From: a virus
Taxonomy: Duplodnaviria; Heunggongvirae; Uroviricota; Caudoviricetes
Length of the DNA: 64,000 bases
IMG/VR virus record: IMGVR_UViG_3300045988_150638
Strand: one strand, 5' to 3'
The translations under genes and the position numbers were made by a program. Shown here piece after piece: positions 864 through 64,000 of this stretch. Positions within the stretch are counted from its first letter, which is position 1, and each line of letters starts with the position of its first letter. The notes below the pieces were generated by a model. That model ran no database searches, was not told the DNA's origin, and worked only from the letters and a program-made list of their open reading frames with translations.

Positions 864-1145
864 ATGTGTGATTTCACAATAATGCTCCTCTCCATCCTTG
901 GCGGGGTGCATTCGTTTCTGAATGGGGTTCGTGAAAAACGTTACGAAGCGTCATGCAGGCAATTGATGGCCGAGTGTATTGCTGCCGTACTTGCAGGCTT
1001 TATAGGCATGTATTTCGCGGAATATAAGGGTATGGATGAAAGTCTTCAGAATTGCGTGACTATTATTTGCAGCATCAATAACAGGCTCATTCTTGAAAAG
1101 TTACAAAGGATTATCGATTCGTACCTCAATAGAAATGCCTCTTAA
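864..1145 (+). CDS. holin-like small membrane protein, paralog of LydA
   Basis: 93 aa; shares a pattern with the next ORF (LLS.IGG..FL..VR...TI.S.N..ID..LN); AAGGAAA SD before ATG. Confidence 0.45.
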   Translation: MCDFTIMLLSILGGVHSFLNGVREKRYEASCRQLMAECIAAVLAGFIGMYFAEYKGMDESLQNCVTIICSINNRLILEKLQRIIDSYLNRNAS

Positions 1146-1212: not shown

Positions 1213-1542
1213 GTGCTTGACACACAGGAATTAGCTCCAGTTGCTATTGCGCTCCTGCTTTCAGTAATTGGTGGGATAGGCACGTTCCTGATGGATGTCC
1301 GAGACGGTCGCCAGTCTGGCAATTTGTTGGGATTGGTTACGGAGATCTTTGTTGCAGTGACAGCTGGCGCGGTGGCGTACCTATTGGGGCAACACGAGGG
1401 CTGGGAGTTATCAATTACGTACTTAATGGTAACGATAGCCAGCAATAACGGTCATGAGGTGATTTCAGGGATGAAACGAGTGAATATCGATAGCATTCTG
1501 AATGTTCTTACAAGTTTGGTGAAAAAGGGAGGCGGGAAATGA
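1213..1542 (+). CDS. lydA: holin LydA
   Basis: 109 aa hydrophobic protein with GTG start 5 nt after AGGAGGG; first gene of a dar/lysis-type operon; size matches recalled P1 LydA. Confidence 0.55.
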   Translation: MLDTQELAPVAIALLLSVIGGIGTFLMDVRDGRQSGNLLGLVTEIFVAVTAGAVAYLLGQHEGWELSITYLMVTIASNNGHEVISGMKRVNIDSILNVLTSLVKKGGGK

Positions 1543-1982
1543 TTGGCTGGGGTGTATGCGTTCTTGCGTTAGCCTTAGCCGATCGCTATTTGCTAAAACG
1601 CAAGGACATCACGCATTTAGAACTTGGTGATGTGGAAATAAAACCGGGTTTCATCCGGGTGCCGTTCAAATACCGGTCTAAATTCCCGTTTTTGCGCGGC
1701 GCAACGGTCAGATATTGGATCCGCGATGTTCAGAAGCCGACGACAGTGATTGAAGGCGAACAACGTTGTCTGACGTCGACTGAACAGGGCGAAAACAGTG
1801 AATGGTTGTACATACCCACTGAATATATGGGTAAAGGAGAGCGACTGTGGCATTTCAACGTCATGGTTACGCATGGCGACTCGTTCATTAACCCGTTGTA
1901 TCGGATTTTCCCTGTTACTCAGCAAATCCGCAGAAGTTACGTAATAAATCTCGCACAGGATGTGTCAGATGACGAAAAATAA
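1539..1982 (+). CDS. lydB: antiholin LydB
   Basis: 147 aa; start overlaps lydA stop (translational coupling); position after lydA as in P1. Confidence 0.5.
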   Translation: MIGWGVCVLALALADRYLLKRKDITHLELGDVEIKPGFIRVPFKYRSKFPFLRGATVRYWIRDVQKPTTVIEGEQRCLTSTEQGENSEWLYIPTEYMGKGERLWHFNVMVTHGDSFINPLYRIFPVTQQIRRSYVINLAQDVSDDEK

Positions 1983-2572: not shown

Positions 2573-4492
2573 ATGGAACAGTTCAATATCAATAAAGGGG
2601 TGACGATCAAGCCCGGGCTTGACGTGCTTCCCCCGCCAGTGACTGATGATGAATATCGCGCATTAATGTCCGGTGAGGACCGCTATCTGATGACGGAATC
2701 CAACACCCTGGAGGAAATCGAGGCTACGTTCTTCTATGACACGCCGATCCACTGGTGTGCTACGGATTTACTGGAGGCGATTAGTTCTACTCGTTTGCAG
2801 TTACACCGGACCATGCAGGCATTTGTCCGGGCATTGAACCAGAAGCTGAATGGCACCGGAATCTCTGCGGGGAGTGATAAAACGGGGGATGTGGCCCAGA
2901 GCGGCGCGCGCGCGATCGGCGGTGCTGAAATTGGCCGGGCACGGAACGTTAACGGGCTGCCGGTCCTGCCAGCCATTATTCCGCTCAGTGATGGTCAGAC
3001 TATCAGCATTCTGTTTCATAGCCCGACAGCGGAAAACCGGATCACCAATAGCGATACGCTGGTTGCTTTCCAGTTCTTACTGAATAAAAAAGACGTTACT
3101 CACACCGTTGCTCCGATGAGTGGACGTGATATGACGCTGGCGCAGGTCACCATGAAACTTGCCAACCTTGCAGAGAAAAACTCGGCAAAATTCCAGCGTG
3201 CGCAGAAGAAGAAAAAAGCCCTGGTTGATGAAATAACCCAACTACAGGCTGACAGTGACCAGAAAGAGGATGCCATGAGCGACCTCGCGGATCAGGAGGC
3301 AGTGGTAGAAGGGCAGAAGGCAGATCTGGAGCAGAAAATTAACGCGGTCGCCTCGGAAGCGGATTCTCTTTATGAAGAGAATGAGCGTTTGCAGGCGGAG
3401 ATTGATCAGCTCAATCGCACAGGTGGGCGCGATACCATTGCTCCAGTGGCAATAACTGGTGGGCACTCTCGCGCGCTGACGGATCGCCTTGCCAGTATCA
3501 AAAATCGTATGCATATGAACGGGGAAGTGACGCTCAGTAATGGTGCATCAATGAAGCAATTCATTGAGGACGGTGAAGGGTATATCCAGTTAACCGATTC
3601 GGATGGCAGCGTGTACATGATCAAGGCTAAATCCATACAGGGTGTGGATATGGCAGATGCGATCGGCAAGCTGTTTAAAGCCTATAAAGCGGGTAATGTA
3701 TCGGAATACCTGGTCCAACCAGAAGAACATAAACCGGAAAACGTCGAACCTGAACCAGCGGAGGATACCGGTAGCTCTTCGCCTGAACCAGAAGTCTCTA
3801 TAGGTGCATATCGATATGCCCTGCAAATGCGTCCGGCGGCCCCTGGCGCAATACCTGAAGGTAACAAAGCAATTCTGCCGCGCCCTTATGAAGGTGACCC
3901 GTATTATGAATATGCACGCTACGGCATTGCTACTTACGATACCCCGCTTTCTGATCAGCAAATGAGTGAGTACGACCTGAAGTTATTGCCTCGCGAGGAT
4001 TCTTTCGACTTCCTGGCGAAGACACTTACTAATGGTCCATTTGGCAAATATGCACAAAAAGCTCTGGAGCTGGCCACCAGCTCACCAGAAGAGTTCCGCG
4101 TAATGCTGAAAACTCAGTTTCAAAAAACTTTCCCCAATATTGCGTTTCCGGGGGGCGCTGGCACCGAGAAAATGGTGCAGAGCATGATCAATGCATTGCA
4201 GGCCGAAGTCGGTGAGATTACTCAGCCAGAACCGGCCCCGGCACAGCCTGATGAAACGGTTAGCGAAGCAGATGCAGAGGCTAATAAAGCCATTGAATAT
4301 CTCAATAACGTGATGGATATGCAAAGCACTGACATGGCGGAGATCCGTAACGCCCGGGGCAATGTCCGGGAAGCGATTGCAGCCCTTCAGGCTGCCGGAC
4401 GTTTTGAGGAAAACGAAGAGCTGGTTAACGGCGCGGCTCGCCACCTGGCTGATCTGCTGGTAGCAATCCAGAAAGCGGGGGTAGCGGCATGA
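2573..4492 (+). CDS. darA: DarA anti-restriction internal head protein precursor
   Basis: 639 aa, matching recalled size of P1 DarA; followed by ddrA/ddrB in the same operon. Confidence 0.65.
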   Translation: MEQFNINKGVTIKPGLDVLPPPVTDDEYRALMSGEDRYLMTESNTLEEIEATFFYDTPIHWCATDLLEAISSTRLQLHRTMQAFVRALNQKLNGTGISAGSDKTGDVAQSGARAIGGAEIGRARNVNGLPVLPAIIPLSDGQTISILFHSPTAENRITNSDTLVAFQFLLNKKDVTHTVAPMSGRDMTLAQVTMKLANLAEKNSAKFQRAQKKKKALVDEITQLQADSDQKEDAMSDLADQEAVVEGQKADLEQKINAVASEADSLYEENERLQAEIDQLNRTGGRDTIAPVAITGGHSRALTDRLASIKNRMHMNGEVTLSNGASMKQFIEDGEGYIQLTDSDGSVYMIKAKSIQGVDMADAIGKLFKAYKAGNVSEYLVQPEEHKPENVEPEPAEDTGSSSPEPEVSIGAYRYALQMRPAAPGAIPEGNKAILPRPYEGDPYYEYARYGIATYDTPLSDQQMSEYDLKLLPREDSFDFLAKTLTNGPFGKYAQKALELATSSPEEFRVMLKTQFQKTFPNIAFPGGAGTEKMVQSMINALQAEVGEITQPEPAPAQPDETVSEADAEANKAIEYLNNVMDMQSTDMAEIRNARGNVREAIAALQAAGRFEENEELVNGAARHLADLLVAIQKAGVAA

Positions 4493-4854
4493 CACTATCA
4501 GCTATTGAGTTAATGGATCTCAGCGATAAGTTGGATGCTCTGATGTCCAAAGCTGCTACCGCGAGTGGCATGGAGTTGCTGGATATCAGCGATGAAATTG
4601 ACCAGATCATGCAACAGATGGGGTACGGCGCGTCCGGCAGCGGTAGTGGCGAGGAAAAACAACCTTCGGTACATGATGGTGTGCCAAAACTGGTTGCTGA
4701 TTTCCTGGCTGATAAATTCGTCGATCAGAGCACTGATGCATTTATCGGTACGTTACAGGACTTGAGTCAATATGTTGGCACATACATCGACCTGGACCAG
4801 GTTAAACAGCACACGGCGGCATGGATAGCCGCCAACATTAAAGAGGCAGAATAA
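4489..4854 (+). CDS. ddrA: DdrA
   Basis: 121 aa; start overlaps darA stop; position in dar operon. Confidence 0.5.
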   Translation: MTLSAIELMDLSDKLDALMSKAATASGMELLDISDEIDQIMQQMGYGASGSGSGEEKQPSVHDGVPKLVADFLADKFVDQSTDAFIGTLQDLSQYVGTYIDLDQVKQHTAAWIAANIKEAE

Positions 4855-8154: not shown

Positions 8155-8185
8155 AAATCCCGCCAATCGGCGGGATTTGTTGTTT
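8155..8185. terminator. bidirectional rho-independent terminator
   Basis: stem AAATCCCGCC / GGCGGGATTT with 4-nt loop followed by GTTGTTT; lies between convergent genes ending at 8152 and 8184. Confidence 0.6.
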
Positions 8186-9488
8186 ATGCCAGGCGGGCTA
8201 TGCGTATCTTACAATCATCTAGGTGGATGCGTAGCGCTTCTAAACATGGAGTAAAGTTAGCTGAGAATTTGTCGGACTCACAGGCCAATGCATAAAATTT
8301 TTCAGCCAATTCAAGAGATTCATCCCATATTTTTCGACTTACAAAGTCTGGTAGTGCTGTTTTTCTAAGCTCATTAGATATTGCTCCCCCAGAGCGTGGA
8401 GCAAAACCCATAGGTAACATGTCATAGGCTGGAGCAATATGATATGGGCGTCCGTGGCTACTAATAAACGATAGGTTACCATTATGCATATCGGTATTGC
8501 CTATTAGCAAACCAAAAGACCATAGCCTTGTTGCTATAATAATCGCATCAGGATGGACGCACTTATTTTTTACCAACTCTTTAACCAGCAAGGGCCATGT
8601 TGCTCTTGCATTCCCAACAAATTCTGCATCAAGTGCACGAAGTGAGAATACACCTACCCGACCTAGTTGACCAACACGATCAAATCGGGGAATTTCCAAG
8701 AATCTCTGACCGTTATAATCAAAAACTTCTGTTTCTACCCCCAGAACTTTTAATGCGAGATGTTCAGCAAACAAGAGATCTCTCCAACGCTCACTTATAG
8801 GGGTGTCGTTAGGCGCAGAGAATTTCACTAATACATGTCCACGCTCTGTGAAAGTACAAAATTTGGGTTGTTCACCTCCAGCAGATGAACCGGGCACATC
8901 ACCTTCACCAGCAGCTAAAGCTAATACAGGATATTCACTTTCACGATTAACAGGAACAGGAGGCTGCATCTCTAAAAAATGCGTGCGTGCTTGCTCTCCA
9001 ATTAACAAATTACCAACAACATCATGCCCATGCTTAAGTAAGGCTTTGATCACGTCAGTATCTGACCATTGCTCTGGATTTGAGGGAAGGTTAAGTTCAA
9101 GAGCATATGCTGATGCATATGCTCTTCCAAGGAAGCCTTGTGGACGCATATCAAATAACCACCAAGGTAACCCATCGCTATGCCTGTTATTTTTCCCTTC
9201 CTCAACCATAACATAGCCTTCTGGCCTCACCGGAATGAGAGTACCAAGAACGCAAATACACCCCTCTTCAGTTATACGATAAATGGGGACTGATTCGAAT
9301 CCTCTAAAAGAGTCTCGTAAAGCATATTGAATAGATCTTCCATTTCCGATCCTAACGATTTCATCACCAAGATCTCTTAATGCTCTAGATATCGTTGGTT
9401 GGCTAACACCTAGTCTTTCAACCAATTGTCTTGGTGTCATAGGACCTTGATTGAGCAAATTACGGATTGTTGTTGCATGTATAGCCAT
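8184..9488 (-). CDS. HTH-HipA-like Ser/Thr kinase (YjjJ-like)
   Basis: N-terminal HTH (PRQLVERLGVSQPTISRALRDLG) fused to a HipA-type kinase core (GEQPKF, DMHNGNLSF); ORF extends to 9548 but ATG at 9488 (MAIHATT) preferred; AT-richer than flanks. Confidence 0.55.
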   Translation of the reverse strand: MAIHATTIRNLLNQGPMTPRQLVERLGVSQPTISRALRDLGDEIVRIGNGRSIQYALRDSFRGFESVPIYRITEEGCICVLGTLIPVRPEGYVMVEEGKNNRHSDGLPWWLFDMRPQGFLGRAYASAYALELNLPSNPEQWSDTDVIKALLKHGHDVVGNLLIGEQARTHFLEMQPPVPVNRESEYPVLALAAGEGDVPGSSAGGEQPKFCTFTERGHVLVKFSAPNDTPISERWRDLLFAEHLALKVLGVETEVFDYNGQRFLEIPRFDRVGQLGRVGVFSLRALDAEFVGNARATWPLLVKELVKNKCVHPDAIIIATRLWSFGLLIGNTDMHNGNLSFISSHGRPYHIAPAYDMLPMGFAPRSGGAISNELRKTALPDFVSRKIWDESLELAEKFYALACESDKFSANFTPCLEALRIHLDDCKIRIARLA

Positions 9489-9661
9489 AGTTTTAATTAC
9501 TATTGTGAATAGATTAATGAATAGATTCATGAATGCGTACAATAGCAAGCAAAACGGGAGGTGTCACTAATTTAGGTAAGTTAAAAAGACTTCTTTAAAA
9601 GATGATGACTAGGCGCTTTAACTGCTAGCTGACATAACAATTGGCCATTTGACGTGGAGTT

Positions 9662-11235: not shown

Positions 11236-11793
11236 ATGAAGGGAAAAACAGCCGCAGGAGGCGGTGCAATTTGCGCTATCGCGGTGATGATTACCATCGT
11301 AATGGGTAATGGCAATGTGCGAACCAACCAGGCGGGGCTTGAGCTGATTGGTAACGCTGAAGGTTGCCGACGTGATCCATACATGTGCCCGGCGGGGGTA
11401 TGGACTGACGGGATCGGTAATACACACGGGGTAACGCCGGGTGTGCGAAAAACCGACCAGCAAATCGCCGCTGATTGGGAAAAGAATATCCTGATCGCTG
11501 AACGCTGTATTAATCAGCACTTCCGGGGCAAAGACATGCCCGATAATGCCTTTAGTGCAATGACAAGCGCGGCATTCAATATGGGATGCAATAGCTTACG
11601 GACCTACTACAGCAAAGCGCGAGGCATGCGAGTCGAAACGTCCATCCACAAGTGGGCGCAGAAAGGGGAATGGGTGAATATGTGTAACCATCTCCCTGAT
11701 TTTGTGAACAGTAACGGCGTGCCCCTGCGAGGTTTAAAGATTCGCCGTGAAAAAGAACGCCAGCTTTGCCTGACGGGACTGGTCAATGAATAA
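11236..11793 (+). CDS. lyz: SAR endolysin Lyz (T4-lysozyme-like)
   Basis: 185 aa from the ATG at 11236 (ORF begins 11137); N-terminal Gly/Ala-rich SAR segment then an E...C...T catalytic triad pattern. Confidence 0.8.
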   Translation: MKGKTAAGGGAICAIAVMITIVMGNGNVRTNQAGLELIGNAEGCRRDPYMCPAGVWTDGIGNTHGVTPGVRKTDQQIAADWEKNILIAERCINQHFRGKDMPDNAFSAMTSAAFNMGCNSLRTYYSKARGMRVETSIHKWAQKGEWVNMCNHLPDFVNSNGVPLRGLKIRREKERQLCLTGLVNE

Positions 11794-12040
11794 ACTCCGG
11801 CAGCTCCGCAGACTTTCGACAATGAAGTTATCGCTGGCAGCGATAGTTTTCGACTCGATTTTCATGGCGGTATATGTGCTTAATGAAACGTGGCCACTGG
11901 AACCGCTATTGTATGCCGGGCTTCGGCTGTGCCTGACATTTTTGAGCATGGCCGCGAGATTGATGCAGCAGAAAGAAACCGCTTCAGATTGTCCACGCCG
12001 CGCGGTGCGCAAATATATGGCACGCAGGCGAAGTCGATAA
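11786..12040 (+). CDS. small membrane protein downstream of lyz
   Basis: 84 aa; start overlaps lyz stop; hydrophobic segment; followed by a terminator. Confidence 0.3.
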   Translation: MNKLRQLRRLSTMKLSLAAIVFDSIFMAVYVLNETWPLEPLLYAGLRLCLTFLSMAARLMQQKETASDCPRRAVRKYMARRRSR

Positions 12041-12051
12041 TAGTTAACGAG

Positions 12052-12079
12052 AACCCCGGCACTCGCCGGGGTTATTTTT
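12052..12079 (+). terminator. rho-independent terminator
   Basis: AACCCCGGC-actc-GCCGGGGTT followed by ATTTTTGG. Confidence 0.6.
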
Positions 12080-12084
12080 GGTGG

Positions 12085-14815
<2,731 letters not shown>

Positions 14816-22426: not shown

Positions 22427-22936
22427 TTAATTATGGTTAATCATATCTAACAGTATTTTTAGCTTCCTGCATGTGTTATCAATATCTTTACATAATATGA
22501 CATCAAGGATGTTTGGTAGTCCTAATACCATATGAGAAATGAAACCCTCGCCAACTTGTAGATTATGGGTAGTCTCATCTGGATTCACGTATTCAATGGT
22601 TTTAGTTTTATTTATCCCATAATCTTTATAACAGATGATTACAGGAATGTTCTTCTGTTCAGCAATCTGCAACTCTATTCCTAGCCCTGTTGATGGAAAA
22701 CTACATTCTGCAATTATTACATCAGATTTCTCAACCATATCTCTGTCCCAAATGTAACAAAGTCTAGATTTGTTACTTTCAGGGCGCTTTGATAATTCTG
22801 GGTCACTATTTATCAAAGCATATTTTACGTTGTTATTTTGAGATAGACCTTTTGCAAGGCTGTGAATCCAATTACTGTACTCATGGAAAATTTCCCTTGG
22901 AACATGAGTTAAAGCGCATGCGATATATATATTCAT
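22427..22936 (-). CDS. nucleoside 2-deoxyribosyltransferase-like (NDT/DNPH1-fold) protein, hotspot cassette gene B
   Basis: 169 aa; N-terminal strand IYIACAL and DVIIAECSFPSTGLGIELQIAEQKNIPVI, which mirrors the NDT catalytic-Glu motif (GLGMELGYALSQGKYVL); ATG overlaps the stop of the upstream gene (TAATG); AT-rich. Confidence 0.6.
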   Translation of the reverse strand: MNIYIACALTHVPREIFHEYSNWIHSLAKGLSQNNNVKYALINSDPELSKRPESNKSRLCYIWDRDMVEKSDVIIAECSFPSTGLGIELQIAEQKNIPVIICYKDYGINKTKTIEYVNPDETTHNLQVGEGFISHMVLGLPNILDVILCKDIDNTCRKLKILLDMINHN

Positions 22937-23976
22937 TAAGAAGCAGACCTTACGTTTGGGATAAGAAATTGGTGTCCAGTAATTTCAGATGAAATTGCAT
23001 CTATAAACTGTGACGGAGATTGTTGAATAAATTCAGCAATAATCCAGTTTTCTTTTTCATTTAGTAACTGTCTTAGCTTAAGTGGGTCATACCGACATAG
23101 CTCACTTAATCGATGCATAGCTGCTAGGGTTATAACCAATGGCGATATTGAAACAGAAGTATGCTCAGATTGATTGTTTTTACGTTTGAGATACCAAAGA
23201 GTCTCTGCGCCATTGATATAGTAAAGATTTCTTCTTATTTTTTGATGAAATTCAGTTAATTGCGGCATGTTGGATGATTGATTTTCATTATAATCAAGTA
23301 ATGATTCTACTGATTTTATTTTGTACTTTTCTCTTTCAAACAATTCGAACGCTGGCGGTAGAATGTCGAAAACTGTGTCGAACCGAAAATCCTTGGATAA
23401 AATCGCAGTGAAAAACAGGCTATTGTCTGACTCATTCAAAACGAACTCAGCATCGATCAGTGGAATAAATATATCATCAGTTACATCATAAGTAAGGCAA
23501 TATGTACGATGAATGTATGGCAATCCAGAAAAAAGGTTTTTTATATTGTACACCCCCTCATGAGAGGTGCCGTCAATATATTTTGAAAAAGACGGAAGTA
23601 TACCCTCATTTTTTATTTTTACTTTTATATCAGATAAGTTATCAATTTGGGCTGCATTTTCACCCCTAGCAACACCATGATGCTGTTTGAAGTTTATATT
23701 GCGAGATGAAAGTAACGCCTTTACTGCATTCATGAATGAATAATAGTGCAAAAGTGGGGCTGATTGGTTGGGTAAACCATTGGCCGCCTGATTAAATACT
23801 TTTGCTTGCTCCCAATAAAAAAGAGCCTCATCTTTTTCGTTTCGCTTTAACCAGAGTTCGACAAAATCCCAATGACTGTATGTAAGTACATTCCTTGCGG
23901 TTAGGTCAGGGTTTAATGATGCTTTATGAGGCTTCATGACCTTGTTCCTAATTTTCAGCGGCTTAATATTCATCAT
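22936..23976 (-). CDS. hypothetical protein, hotspot cassette gene A (possibly YaaC-like)
   Basis: 346 aa; GGAGGA SD 8 nt upstream; AT-rich; LLHYYSFMNAVKALL segment resembles the YaaC-family signature from memory; no catalytic motif recognised. Confidence 0.5.
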   Translation of the reverse strand: MMNIKPLKIRNKVMKPHKASLNPDLTARNVLTYSHWDFVELWLKRNEKDEALFYWEQAKVFNQAANGLPNQSAPLLHYYSFMNAVKALLSSRNINFKQHHGVARGENAAQIDNLSDIKVKIKNEGILPSFSKYIDGTSHEGVYNIKNLFSGLPYIHRTYCLTYDVTDDIFIPLIDAEFVLNESDNSLFFTAILSKDFRFDTVFDILPPAFELFEREKYKIKSVESLLDYNENQSSNMPQLTEFHQKIRRNLYYINGAETLWYLKRKNNQSEHTSVSISPLVITLAAMHRLSELCRYDPLKLRQLLNEKENWIIAEFIQQSPSQFIDAISSEITGHQFLIPNVRSAS

Positions 23977-58131: not shown

Positions 58132-58207
58132 TGGTGCCGATTAACGGACTCGAACCGCTGACATCCTGCTTACAAGGCAGGCGCTCTACCAACTGAGCTA
58201 AACCGGC
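58132..58207 (-). tRNA. tRNA-Thr (anticodon UGU)
   Basis: 76 nt cloverleaf with 7-bp acceptor stem, anticodon loop CUUGUAA, T-loop TTCGAGT, 3' CCA. Confidence 0.85.
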
Positions 58208-58209
58208 AT

Positions 58210-58285
58210 TGGCGATGGTGGATGGATTTGAACCATCGACCCGTTGATTAACAGTCAACCGCTCTAACCGCTGAGCTACACCATC
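58210..58285 (-). tRNA. tRNA-Asn (anticodon GUU)
   Basis: 76 nt cloverleaf; anticodon loop CUGUUAA; T-loop TTCAAAT; 3' CCA. Confidence 0.85.
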
Positions 58286-58940: not shown

Positions 58941-58968
58941 ATTACACTAATAAATTTATTAGAGCAAT
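58941..58968. promoter_or_regulatory. bipartite overlapping C1 operator (Op72-like) controlling the tRNA-ban operon
   Basis: plus strand ATTACACTAATAAATTT (15/17) overlaps by 6 bp a perfect minus-strand ATTGCTCTAATAAATTT (17/17), forming a near-palindrome. Confidence 0.7.
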
Positions 58969-60977
58969 ATACCCAAAACGTCATGAGCTACACCTCGAGT
59001 GTCCCCCTTACAAGACACAGAACGTCTGGCAAAAAGATGTTCCACTCTGAAGCCACTGTCATGATAAAGCTCTCTGATGTTTGGCGCGCCACTGTTAGTA
59101 ATGAGAACCTTTGCACCTCGACGATGAGCTTCCGTCAACAGAGATACCAGGCGTTTTTGCTCTTCAAACTTAAAGTCATGACCGGAATAGTTCGTGAATC
59201 CCTCTGTATTTGGAAGCGGTTCATACGGCGGATCGCAAAAGATGACATCTCCTTCTCCGGCAGCTTCAATCACCGCTGCAAAATCACCGCATACAAACTC
59301 AGACCGCCCTTCCGCACCGAGGAAGGCTTCCATCTCCTGTAATGGGAAATACGGAGTTTTATACTTCCCATAACCGACATTGAACTCACCGGCCTGGTTG
59401 TAACGCGTCAATCCGTTAAAACAATGTCGGTTCAGGAACAAAAACGCCGCTGCGCGATGTAAATCATCATAGACTTGTTTGTTAAACGCATTCCGTACTG
59501 CCAGGTATCCTTCCTGTGTGTTGTAGTCCTGGAAGAAACGATGTGCCAGAGTGATAAGTGAATGCGCCTCGCGTTGCAGAGTCTTGTAAAAGTTAATCAG
59601 GTCAGCATTCACATCATTTAGCAGATTTTCCTGGTATCCGGCATTCATGAAGACAGCTCCGCCACCAACGAAAGGTTCAATCAGGCGCTTCCCTTCTGGC
59701 AAATAGCGAAAGATTTGTTCCAGAACACCAAATTTTCCACCAGCCCATTTGAATATGGACCGTTCGAATTCTGCCGCTGGTTTAACTTTTCGCTCTTTTG
59801 TTTCACGCCCTTCATTCTGCCGACATGCAGCCTTGGTTATCCGCTCGCCAATCCAGCGCATTACTGGTATCGCCATACTATTGCCGATCGCTTTGTAACG
59901 CGGTCCGTCAGCTGCAAGCATTGCGGCCTCTTCTTCGTTCAAATCAGGAGAGTTTTTGCGAAGGTATGCCAGTTCATCTGAAGAAACTTTTTTACGCTTT
60001 TCCGTAGGGATCAATGTATGTCCATCAGGAAAACCTTGCAGCCTTTCACATTCGACAGGGGTAAGACGGCGCATTCTACCGTCGCCGAGCAATACAATTG
60101 GTGCTTCATGGTTACATGTCAAAGTTGGTGCCGAATTATCGGTTTTTATCTCAGCCCCTCCTTGCCCATGTGCCATGGCAACTATGTTTGTATCATCGCA
60201 AGATCTGATAGCGATGTCTGAAGTATATCTGGTAGTTTCCTTCCCCTCGCCTCTGCTCGGCGCAATATTCCGGCGCACGCCTTCGAACTCAAAAAGTACC
60301 GTTGCGGGATCGAGGTCTGTTCGAGCACTTGCGACAACAAACACGCGTCGGCGTCGTTGTGCCACTCCGAAGTATTGGGCATCAAGGATTCTCCAGGCCA
60401 CCTTTCGCTGCGGTCCATAAATACAACCACACTGCGGCCACTTTGGAACATGGCAACCGGTTTTGCCATCCCACCGCCAGAACGCGTTGCTTTTTCCTGA
60501 TTCAGGTCGATCACCTGGTTCAAATGGCACATCTTCTCCAGCCAATCCAGCAAGGAAACATCCGAAGGCGTTATCTGCCGATGACAAGACTCCTGGGACA
60601 TTTTCCCAGACGATAACGGCTGGTTTGAGAAATGACTCAGCCCGTTTGTCGTCAATTGCATTTGCAAGCTCCACATACTTTAAAGTTAGCGCGCCACGCT
60701 CATCATCAAGCCCACCACGTAATCCCGCGATACTGAATGCCTGACAAGGTGTTCCCCCGACGAGCACATCAGGGGATTCGATTTCCCCAGCCAGGACTTT
60801 TTTGGCAAGTTTTGTCATGTCGCCAAGGTTGGCGACATGGGGCCAGCGGTGCGCAAGAACGGCAGATGGAAAAGACTCGATTTCAGCAAACCACACCGGA
60901 CGCATACCCAACGGTTCCCAGGCAATACTCGCGGCTTCAATTCCACTGCAAACAGATCCATAGCACAGCTCTTTCAC
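58959..60977 (-). CDS. dmt: Dmt bifunctional DNA methyltransferase (C5-cytosine plus N6-adenine)
   Basis: 672 aa; N-terminal C5-MTase motifs ([19 protein letters not shown]) and C-terminal Dam-like motifs (FKWAGGK, DPPY). Confidence 0.85.
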
Positions 60978-62324: not shown

Positions 62325-62609
62325 GTGGCAAGTATTGCAACAAAAGACAGCATTTGTTCGGGGCACGGAGGATTCCCATCCAGGCCTCCTGTAGAGAGTG
62401 AACCACTACTTAAAGTCAACGGAGTCGAAGTGTTAGTTGATGGTAAGCAATATGCACAGCATACCGATGGAAACAGTACGCACGGTGGGCAAGCTATATC
62501 AACCAGGGCATGGTTTACCGTCAATGGTAAAGGGATCGTATGCGTTGGTGACCCTGTTTCATGCGGATCTACCGTAGCGTCCGGAGACGGCCTGGTTCAG
62601 GTAAGTTAG
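62325..62609 (+). CDS. PAAR-like small protein
   Basis: 94 aa with GTG start; Gly/Cys pattern (CSGHGG...GDPVSCGSTV) reminiscent of PAAR spike-tip proteins. Confidence 0.35.
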   Translation: MASIATKDSICSGHGGFPSRPPVESEPLLKVNGVEVLVDGKQYAQHTDGNSTHGGQAISTRAWFTVNGKGIVCVGDPVSCGSTVASGDGLVQVS

Positions 62610-62617
62610 GAGATATC

Positions 62618-63406
62618 ATGCTGGAAAAAGACTACCAGTTATCCGCATATAAAAAATTGGCCGCCGCCGGTGGGATGAAAACACCTGGTGCCATAACATC
62701 GGCACGAAACAGTGCTAACACAGCAAAACTGCTTGCAGAAGAATTGACCGGATTAATTCTGGATACAATTGTCTATCCCGACACTATTACCAGCTATGTT
62801 TCAACGATCAGAACAACCACAACCGGCTTAACGAACATTGGAGAACTGACAACTAAGCACGCGGACCTGTTGGCTGGTTATGCAGATCTGTCAATGCTGC
62901 TTCAACTCGATATTGGTTGGGAGGTTTACTGCCGTGCTAATGAGCGAGAAGTTTCAGAACTGCCGATCTCTATTGCCATTGGTGATGTGAATATTACTAA
63001 ATCGCTTGAGGACGCTGTTAACGCGCTTAATACATCAAGTTTAGTCGCTGCTATGGGGGAGATTAACCAGACCCTTAACACTGGCTCAGGAAGCTCGTCA
63101 AGCTCTGGTTCAGGCGGCGGCACTGCCACTCCCCCACCAGCACTAACAGAAGAGCAAATTGAATCTCTGAAAGTAGCAACTGAACAGTTTGGGGTTGTTT
63201 TCAACCAGACAACAGCGCCCACAACTGCGTTACAACAGCAGTATGAACGAGCGAATGAAAGCGCCAACGTAGCCATAACTGCTTATAACCATGCTATCGG
63301 TACCGCGCTTGCGGAAGCATCAGCAAATAAGGTCAGCACAGCCAGCGCAGTTGCCGCTTTGGTTCCTGATTCTGTTCTTGATGAATTAAACAAAGCGGCA
63401 CAGTAA
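62618..63406 (+). CDS. hypothetical protein
   Basis: 262 aa from the ATG at 62618 (GGAG SD); Ser/Gly-rich linker. Confidence 0.4.
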   Translation: MLEKDYQLSAYKKLAAAGGMKTPGAITSARNSANTAKLLAEELTGLILDTIVYPDTITSYVSTIRTTTTGLTNIGELTTKHADLLAGYADLSMLLQLDIGWEVYCRANEREVSELPISIAIGDVNITKSLEDAVNALNTSSLVAAMGEINQTLNTGSGSSSSSGSGGGTATPPPALTEEQIESLKVATEQFGVVFNQTTAPTTALQQQYERANESANVAITAYNHAIGTALAEASANKVSTASAVAALVPDSVLDELNKAAQ

Positions 63407-63445
63407 CAAAGGACTTCATTGATAATTTTTCTTCAGGAGGAAGAC

Positions 63446-63868
63446 ATGTCATTCTTTTCTACGTTAAAAACAGCTTTGTCTTTGAAGGAGAAACTTGCTG
63501 CTACTGGTGTTCTTGTTCTGATTTGCGCACTTGTTGGTGCTGGGTTTGCATGGGAACGTCATCAGCTAAAGCAAGCCATGGAGAAAATTGGCAGTCTTGA
63601 TCAGGCTGTTAAGGAACGTGATAAGTCAATAATGGATCTTAACCAGACCATTGAGACGATGAACAAAGCAGAGCAACATTTCCACAGCCAGGAAGTGAAA
63701 AATGAATCAGAACAAGCCAAATATGCTGACAGGCAAATGGAACGAAAAGCTGAAGTTCAGAAACAACTGGTTGCGGCGGGTAATGTTCGCCAGCGCATTC
63801 CTGCTGACACTCAGCGGTTGCTCCGGGAGTCGATCAGCGAATTTAACGCCGACGCCGACAAAGGTTAA
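63446..63868 (+). CDS. Rz-like inner-membrane spanin
   Basis: ATG after AGGAGGAAG; N-terminal TM helix, coiled-coil, and C-terminal VAAGNVRQRI resembling lambda Rz VAAGRRRLHI. Confidence 0.45.
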   Translation: MSFFSTLKTALSLKEKLAATGVLVLICALVGAGFAWERHQLKQAMEKIGSLDQAVKERDKSIMDLNQTIETMNKAEQHFHSQEVKNESEQAKYADRQMERKAEVQKQLVAAGNVRQRIPADTQRLLRESISEFNADADKG

Positions 63869-64000
63869 CCACCCTGCCCCCAAAAGTGCATTTATGTGCA
63901 GGATGCCAGAGTTTAGCAGTGAATATTTTGATGATCTGCCAGCCTATATCCTTGATACAGAAACGATGCTGATGGGGATTAACAGGAAGAATCGCAACGT
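63783..64000 (+). CDS. Rz1-like outer-membrane lipoprotein spanin (partial, runs off window)
   Basis: embedded in the +1 frame of the Rz-like gene: MFASAFLLTLSGCSGS lipobox signal followed by a Pro-rich segment (TPTPTKVNHPAPKS); no stop before the window end. Confidence 0.4.
   Translation, partial: MFASAFLLTLSGCSGSRSANLTPTPTKVNHPAPKSAFMCRMPEFSSEYFDDLPAYILDTETMLMGINRKNRN

Follow-up and report, generated by a model that had tools for sequence, protein, structure and literature searches.

Among described two-component spanins, those of phages P2, lambda and T4 offer the nearest comparisons for the genes considered here. In P2, lysB and lysC overlap by 146 nt, and lysC belongs to the canonical lysis cassette, Y(holin)-K(endolysin)-lysA-lysB-lysC. 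In lambda, Rz is a type II inner-membrane helical protein and Rz1 an outer-membrane lipoprotein that is read in the +1 frame and lies wholly inside Rz. The spanin genes of T4, PseT.3 and PseT.2, are separated from each other and are unlinked to the T4 endolysin and holin genes. For phage P1 itself, SpaninDB types the spanin genes as 'ovl', with gp064 as the i-spanin and gp063 as the o-spanin (Kongari 2018, PMC6139136 supplementary file 2). The same resource gives gp064 as 140 aa, of which 104 are periplasmic, with one Cys in the transmembrane domain and none in the periplasmic part. It gives gp063 as 110 aa, 71 of them in the mature form, with one Cys in the periplasm; LipoP places the cleavage at residue 39, and this 39-residue signal is flagged as 'too long' (PMC6139136). 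The two genes, ppfA (gp064) and mlp (gp063), have also been listed as putative, partly overlapping P1 spanin genes, in an operon that is linked neither to lyz/lydD/lydE nor to lydA/lydB/lydC (Bednarek 2022, PMC9025707); that paper credits their identification to Summer et al. (2007). Both are among the 21 most conserved genes in 77 P1-like phage-plasmids (PMC9603915), the RefSeq product label for mlp is 'Rz-like spanin', and several GenBank records of P1-like phages name the pair Rz/Rz1. The Introduction of PMC9025707 labels ppfA the o-spanin and mlp the i-spanin, the reverse of what the sequence features indicate; we consider these labels to be swapped, because PpfA has a transmembrane helix and Mlp has a lipobox.

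The DNA that we analyzed is a stretch of 64,000 nucleotides (the window). Positions 63300-64000 have 98.9-99% DNA identity to phage P1 (NC_005856.1 63388-64088, minus strand), and the last 700 bases match P7, SJ46, RCS47 and other P1-like phage-plasmids similarly, identifying the window as a P1-like phage-plasmid. P1 records annotate ppfA and mlp at the matching stretch (NC_005856.1 63354-63942), and the first-pass annotation's suggestion that the lipoprotein might correspond to P1 mlp is borne out both by the P1 annotation and by the 99% DNA identity. PpfA is 99-100% identical to the PpfA proteins of P1-like phages. At ppfA/mlp the window differs from the P1 reference only allelically, by one residue in PpfA (I45 in P1, M45 in the window) and two in Mlp (S7 to N7 and V32 to A32), whereas elsewhere it carries other cargo. 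The neighbors dmt, hrdC, uhr, upfC and upfB are common to P1 and the window, with upfA and oriR following beyond the window; according to the P1 annotation, the plus-strand cluster upfC-upfB-ppfA-mlp-upfA adjoins the plasmid origin oriR/repA. We consider it highly probable that the region is P1 ppfA/mlp and that it encodes an overlapped two-component spanin pair. None of this is new, the dispersal of the lysis genes included. Feature coordinates are collected in Table 1.

Table 1. Features of the ppfA/mlp region and positions of the other lysis genes in the window.
Feature	Position	Strand	Basis or remark
Shine-Dalgarno AGGAGG of ppfA	63435..63440	+	5 nt upstream of ATG; sequence, agrees with SpaninDB SD for P1 gp064
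ppfA, predicted i-spanin, 140 aa	63446..63868	+	translation; TAA stop 63866-63868
PpfA single N-terminal transmembrane helix, ~residues 17-36	63494..63553	+	Kyte-Doolittle, AF2
PpfA heptad-repeat (coiled-coil-like) periplasmic segment, ~residues 41-79	63566..63682	+	shuffle test, AF2
Shine-Dalgarno AGGA of mlp	63690..63693	+	8 nt upstream of ATG 63702
mlp, predicted o-spanin lipoprotein precursor	63702..64000	+	99 of 110 codons in window
ppfA (frame 0)/mlp (frame +1) dual-coding overlap, 167 nt	63702..63868	+	gene coordinates
Mlp internal Met28 codon, start in the first-pass annotation	63783..63785	+	not conserved
Mlp lipobox L-S-G-C	63810..63821	+	regex; LSAC in JK004; SpaninDB LipoP
lydC	864..1145	+	tblastn of P1 proteins, 98-100% identity
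lydA, holin	1213..1542	+	tblastn of P1 proteins, 98-100% identity
lydB, antiholin	1539..1982	+	tblastn of P1 proteins, 98-100% identity
lyz, P1 SAR endolysin	11236..11793	+	tblastn, 100% identity to P1 Lyz
lydD, putative holin	11786..12040	+	ORF, P1 annotation; downstream of lyz
lydE, putative antiholin	11890..12105	+	ORF, P1 annotation; downstream of lyz

The Rz-like protein carrying VAAGNVRQRI that the first-pass annotation had described, with a transmembrane helix and a coiled coil, is present as the 140-aa PpfA, and the structural part of that description was upheld by several measures. The Kyte-Doolittle maximum over 19 residues is 2.35, at residues 17-35, and the 16 residues at the N-terminus hold three K/R and one D/E (net charge +2), a charge pattern in keeping with type II (N-in/C-out) topology. 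Of the other 104 residues, 36% are charged and none is Cys. An AlphaFold2 (AF2) model built from the single sequence predicts helices at residues 4-116 and 120-138, separated by a break at R117-I118-P119, with a mean pLDDT of 81 and values of 83-95 across the heptad segment. The a/d heptad score of PpfA is 0.78, compared with a shuffle mean of 0.50, and was reached by 1.45% of 2000 shuffles. PpfA therefore has the features of an i-spanin: a single N-terminal transmembrane segment, a predicted N-in/C-out orientation and a mainly helical/coiled-coil periplasmic domain. In profile searches it matched phrog_89 'Rz-like spanin' (1.2e-25, covering positions 3-137 of the 143 in the profile) as well as two other Rz-like PHROGs, gave no match to the Pfam lambda Rz family (PF03245, Phage_lysis) at E <= 0.1, and scored 19 bits (E 0.0013) with the P2 LysB equivalog TIGR03495, for which the cut-off is 92.75 bits.

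Mlp, in turn, has the features of an o-spanin. Its lipobox (LSG|C, found by regex) places the predicted lipidated +1 residue at Cys40 and a Ser, not an Asp, at +2, the form expected of a signal peptidase II substrate, and since Ser occupies +2, sorting of Mlp to the outer membrane is predicted. Mature Mlp has 71 residues, including six Pro, four of which lie within the first ~22 residues, while its C-terminal half is conserved and not Pro-rich; the Pro-rich tail attributed to the protein at first pass is accordingly real for those ~22 residues and does not extend over the rest of the mature protein. Cys66, the sole further Cys, is conserved in Cronobacter phage JK004 (L002) and aligned with a Cys of P2 LysC. 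At least one periplasmic Cys occurs in 507 of 528 known two-component spanin systems (Kongari 2018), and in this pair it is supplied by Mlp, PpfA having none. Mlp matched phrog_30284 'Rz-like spanin' over its full profile (6.5e-79, positions 1-110 of 110) and phrog_456 'Rz-like spanin' at 2.7e-5, and scored 14.7 bits with NF038368 (P2_Rz1, the LysC equivalog), the cut-off of which is 27 bits. A strictly filtered six-frame lipobox scan of the window revealed no other convincing candidate for a spanin or lipoprotein, although P1 plp was possibly missed by it; the sole other lipobox match was a doubtful one at 50905.

The arrangement of the two genes is that of a two-component spanin, as they lie on the same strand and overlap, with mlp in the +1 frame of ppfA [(63702-63446) mod 3 = 1]. 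An open +1 frame within the Rz-like gene had been noted at first pass, and we find it to contain MFASAFLLTLSGCSGS and to be open from ATG 63702 through the end of the window. What could not be sustained is its description as the classic embedded Rz/Rz1 architecture: ppfA ends at its TAA (63866-63868), and mlp runs past 64000, extending 166 nt beyond the ppfA stop. The pair is overlapped, as are P2 lysB/lysC, because the mlp frame continues past the end of ppfA. It had also been proposed that the sequence be extended beyond the window to find the stop, which proved unnecessary for ppfA; for mlp, judging from the 110-aa P1 gene, the stop falls 34 nt past the position corresponding to the window end.

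To compare the locus with its relatives we used a set of 83 P1-like loci (55 distinct DNA sequences), of which 80 were obtained by scanning IMG/VR (97-100% identity) and three by scanning GTDB genomes (96-100% identity). Neither scan yielded relatives in other genomic contexts, all being near-identical P1-like elements, and tblastn against phage records returned only P1-like phages and JK004. In JK004, PpfA and Mlp are 59 and 64% identical to the window proteins, respectively. All 83 P1-like loci keep the mlp frame open (108-118 aa), as does JK004. In the part of mlp downstream of ppfA, the differences from JK004 fall at 22, 11, and 43% of mlp codon positions 1, 2, and 3, whereas in the overlap they follow the ppfA codon phase, a pattern that fits a loosely constrained N-region of the Mlp signal peptide. 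DNA identity to JK004 is 75% in the overlap, 72% in the mlp-only part and 65% in the ppfA-only part, and Mlp hardly varies between the P1-type proteins and JK004 at the lipobox, at Cys66 and throughout its C-terminal half. Judged by this pattern of substitution, both frames are under selection.

Several of these records have irregularities at the locus. The JK004 homolog of mlp (4260..4592) is a full 110-aa lipoprotein ORF that is unannotated and overlaps gene_25 by 164 nt, the record annotating only its last 44 codons (gene_24, 4458..4592), and several P1-like GenBank records have no mlp CDS. One of the 83 loci has ppfA truncated to 66 codons with the mlp frame intact, and another has an altered, longer Mlp C-terminus (118 aa); both could be either natural variants with a defective spanin or errors of sequencing.

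Kinship with the described spanins proved to be uneven. Mlp and P2 LysC are 37% identical over 68 residues (BLASTP, E 1e-7), in an alignment that takes in the signal peptide, the lipobox Cys, a TPTP/APTP Pro-rich linker and the cysteine of a C-x-MP motif, and Mlp has in addition a 23-residue N-terminal extension. By this similarity Mlp is homologous to P2 LysC but outside the NF038368 equivalog. P2 LysB, by comparison, has no BLASTP pairwise similarity to PpfA, and the P2 and P1 pairs differ further in that the latter is unlinked to the other lysis genes. With lambda Rz/Rz1 the pair shares its predicted topology and, by analogy, a predicted mechanism; the differences are that mlp is not contained within its partner gene and that lambda Rz has two periplasmic Cys where PpfA has none. 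The short local resemblance of PpfA VAAGNVRQRI to lambda Rz VAAGRRRLHI was considered as evidence of kinship with lambda Rz and rejected, the BLASTP E value of 0.26 not being significant. The T4 proteins resemble the P1 pair in that the i-spanin PseT.3 has no periplasmic Cys and the o-spanin PseT.2 is longer and has structure in its C-terminal part (PMC6139136), and differ in that PseT.2 has two periplasmic Cys and Mlp one. On these comparisons PpfA belongs to the broader Rz-like PHROG and Mlp is distantly related to P2 LysC, so that the pair is assigned to the functional class of two-component spanins and not to the lambda Rz or P2 equivalog families. As these searches gave close homologs only in P1-like phages and JK004, it was the similarity to P2 LysC that we used for lysis-cassette context.

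Two of the alternatives that we weighed concern the mlp reading frame. The first is that the +1-frame ORF is open merely by chance, in and after ppfA, and is not translated, and the frequency with which gene callers miss mlp, leaving a fragment or nothing in JK004 and several P1-like records, would be in keeping with this. Against it are the retention of the open frame throughout the 83 P1-like loci and also in JK004 despite only 59-64% protein identity, the mlp-phased substitutions downstream of ppfA, the conservation of the lipobox and Cys66, and the homology of Mlp to P2 LysC, which together make a chance frame extremely improbable. A further point against it, the conservation of ATG 63702 and its Shine-Dalgarno sequence (present without exception in the 83 P1-like loci and also in JK004), bears equally on where translation of mlp begins. 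The start chosen at first pass, ATG 63783 (MFASAF...), is an internal codon, Met28, 81 nt downstream of the conserved ATG, and a start there or at TTG 63771 would give Mlp a short, classical signal like that of P2 LysC. That the N-terminus of P2 LysC aligns from Mlp residue 24 onward, that initiation at TTG 63771 would produce MRRVMFASAFLLTLSG|C, a textbook 16-residue lipoprotein signal, and that the 39-residue signal was flagged as overlong in SpaninDB all lend this alternative some appeal. The downstream codons are not conserved, however: JK004 has Arg in place of Leu24 and Phe in place of Met28, and three of the 83 P1-like loci have Val instead of Met28. Neither codon is preceded by a clear Shine-Dalgarno sequence, and with initiation at 63783 the signal would be 12 residues long and would lack positive charge. 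The in-frame start-type codons of JK004 are the ATG equivalent to 63702, which follows AGGAGGTGA, and a GTG without a Shine-Dalgarno sequence, and both the P1 annotation and SpaninDB use the upstream start. A downstream start is therefore unlikely, though it keeps more weight than the other alternatives discussed here, and ATG 63702 is supported as the start of mlp. The question touches the start codon only and leaves the spanin reading unaffected.

The other alternative concerns function, namely that Mlp acts alone, as a prophage lipoprotein whose role lies outside lysis, such as superinfection exclusion or lysogenic conversion in the manner of lambda Bor or T5 Llp, and PpfA an unrelated membrane or periplasmic protein, both being expressed from sigma-70 promoters in the plasmid prophage. 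The P1 annotation does place only predicted sigma-70 promoters (P1ppfA and P2ppfA) upstream of the pair and no Lpa-type late promoter. Consistent with this, a motif derived from LPlyz (AGTGATT-N5-TANNNT, with at most one mismatch) had no match between 62000 and 63446, though eight in the whole window, against 3.8 expected; a generic scan for sigma-70 promoters and terminators performed at chance level. The genes also adjoin the plasmid replicon, far from lyz, and their knock-down by CRISPRi was scored as non-essential in P1vir, with plaques persisting and an EOP of 1.3/1.2 for ppfA and 0.24/0.19 for mlp (PMC10695390). We regard the CRISPRi result as weak evidence against a spanin, because it comes from knock-down on plates; lambda Rz was scored as essential in the same study (PMC10695390), an outcome that could reflect polarity on the late transcript. 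Opposing a role outside lysis are the gene order, an i-spanin-like gene followed by a lipoprotein gene, and the +1 overlap, which are a spanin signature and so support the spanin reading, together with the similarity of Mlp to P2 LysC, a member of a lysis cassette, and the match of PpfA to a large Rz-like PHROG at 1e-25. Work on lambda has established that spanins are inert while the cell wall is intact, and expression in the lysogen is consequently no contradiction of a spanin role. We judge a non-lysis function for the two proteins to be improbable, and the proposal at first pass that they form a spanin pair gains from the PHROG matches, the Mlp-LysC similarity and the listing in SpaninDB.

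If PpfA and Mlp act as do the spanins of lambda and P2, Mlp would be lipidated, cut by signal peptidase II and Lol-sorted to the inner leaflet of the outer membrane, where it would probably dimerize via its single conserved periplasmic Cys66, and PpfA would be anchored in the inner membrane, its helical domain projecting into the periplasm. Binding between the conserved C-terminal parts of the two proteins would then produce a complex spanning the periplasm through the peptidoglycan mesh. Destruction of the wall by the LydA holin and the Lyz SAR-endolysin, both encoded elsewhere, would free the PpfA-Mlp complexes, which would fuse the inner and outer membranes and complete lysis.

The lysis genes of the window fall into three loci (lydC-lydA-lydB, lyz-lydD-lydE, and ppfA-mlp). 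The separation from lyz, put at about 52 kb at first pass, is 51.7 kb by our measurement, and ppfA/mlp lie 61 kb from lydA. That the lysis functions are dispersed, as had been remarked from the sequence, is correct, the pair being unlinked from lyz, and has already been reported (PMC9025707).

Features elsewhere in the window were also noted. In the place of IS1 (insA) and isaB is a 454-aa ORF (8184..9548, minus strand) that carries a winged-helix HTH at its N-terminus and, C-terminally, a kinase domain resembling that of HipA (Pfam HipA_C, 3.2e-15). Searching the window by tblastn with the P1 IsaB and InsA proteins gave no match, and the ORF looks like alternative cargo of a toxin- or defence-like kind. 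Between lxc and ref/cre, where reference P1 has EcoP1I res/mod, are two adjacent ORFs (22427..23976, minus strand) encoding a YaaC-like protein of 346 aa (Pfam, 1.4e-45) and a protein of 169 aa that weakly resembles nucleoside 2-deoxyribosyltransferase (1.8e-4, below the cut-off). PADLOC returned no match for these ORFs, which may be defence cargo in the P1 variable region. The dmt ORF (58959..60977, minus strand) has C5-cytosine and D12 N6-adenine methyltransferase domains and encodes 672 aa, compared with 754 aa (2265 nt) in the P1 reference, ~82 codons fewer. Three tRNA genes on the minus strand were identified with Rfam between dmt and the upstream genes (56629..56701, 58135..58207, and 58213..58285); P1 too is known to have tRNA genes there. 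The first gene of the plus-strand cluster containing ppfA/mlp, upfC (62325..62609, +), encodes a PAAR-motif protein (Pfam PAAR 8.5e-6, just under the gathering score; phrog_281, 2e-30) for which the P1 record notes similarity to T4 gp5.4. UpfC is likely a tail-spike tip protein, sharing an apparent operon with the spanin genes.

There is a slim chance that the PpfA-Mlp complex is not a dedicated late lysis function, being expressed from sigma-70 promoters, also in the plasmid prophage, along with the rest of the cluster upfC (PAAR spike-tip-like)-upfB-ppfA-mlp-upfA. This would explain why plaque formation remained intact under knock-down, and if true P1 would open the outer membrane in a redundant way or, alternatively, the trans-envelope complex would have some other use, such as envelope remodelling in the lysogen or an entry-related role. 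For the overlapped spanin pair that we favor, the significance is small beyond correct annotation. The locus is an example of how overlapped o-spanin genes go missed or mis-started in annotation, and P1 is a model phage with lysis genes scattered over at least three loci, in the description of which the spanin is a small gap.
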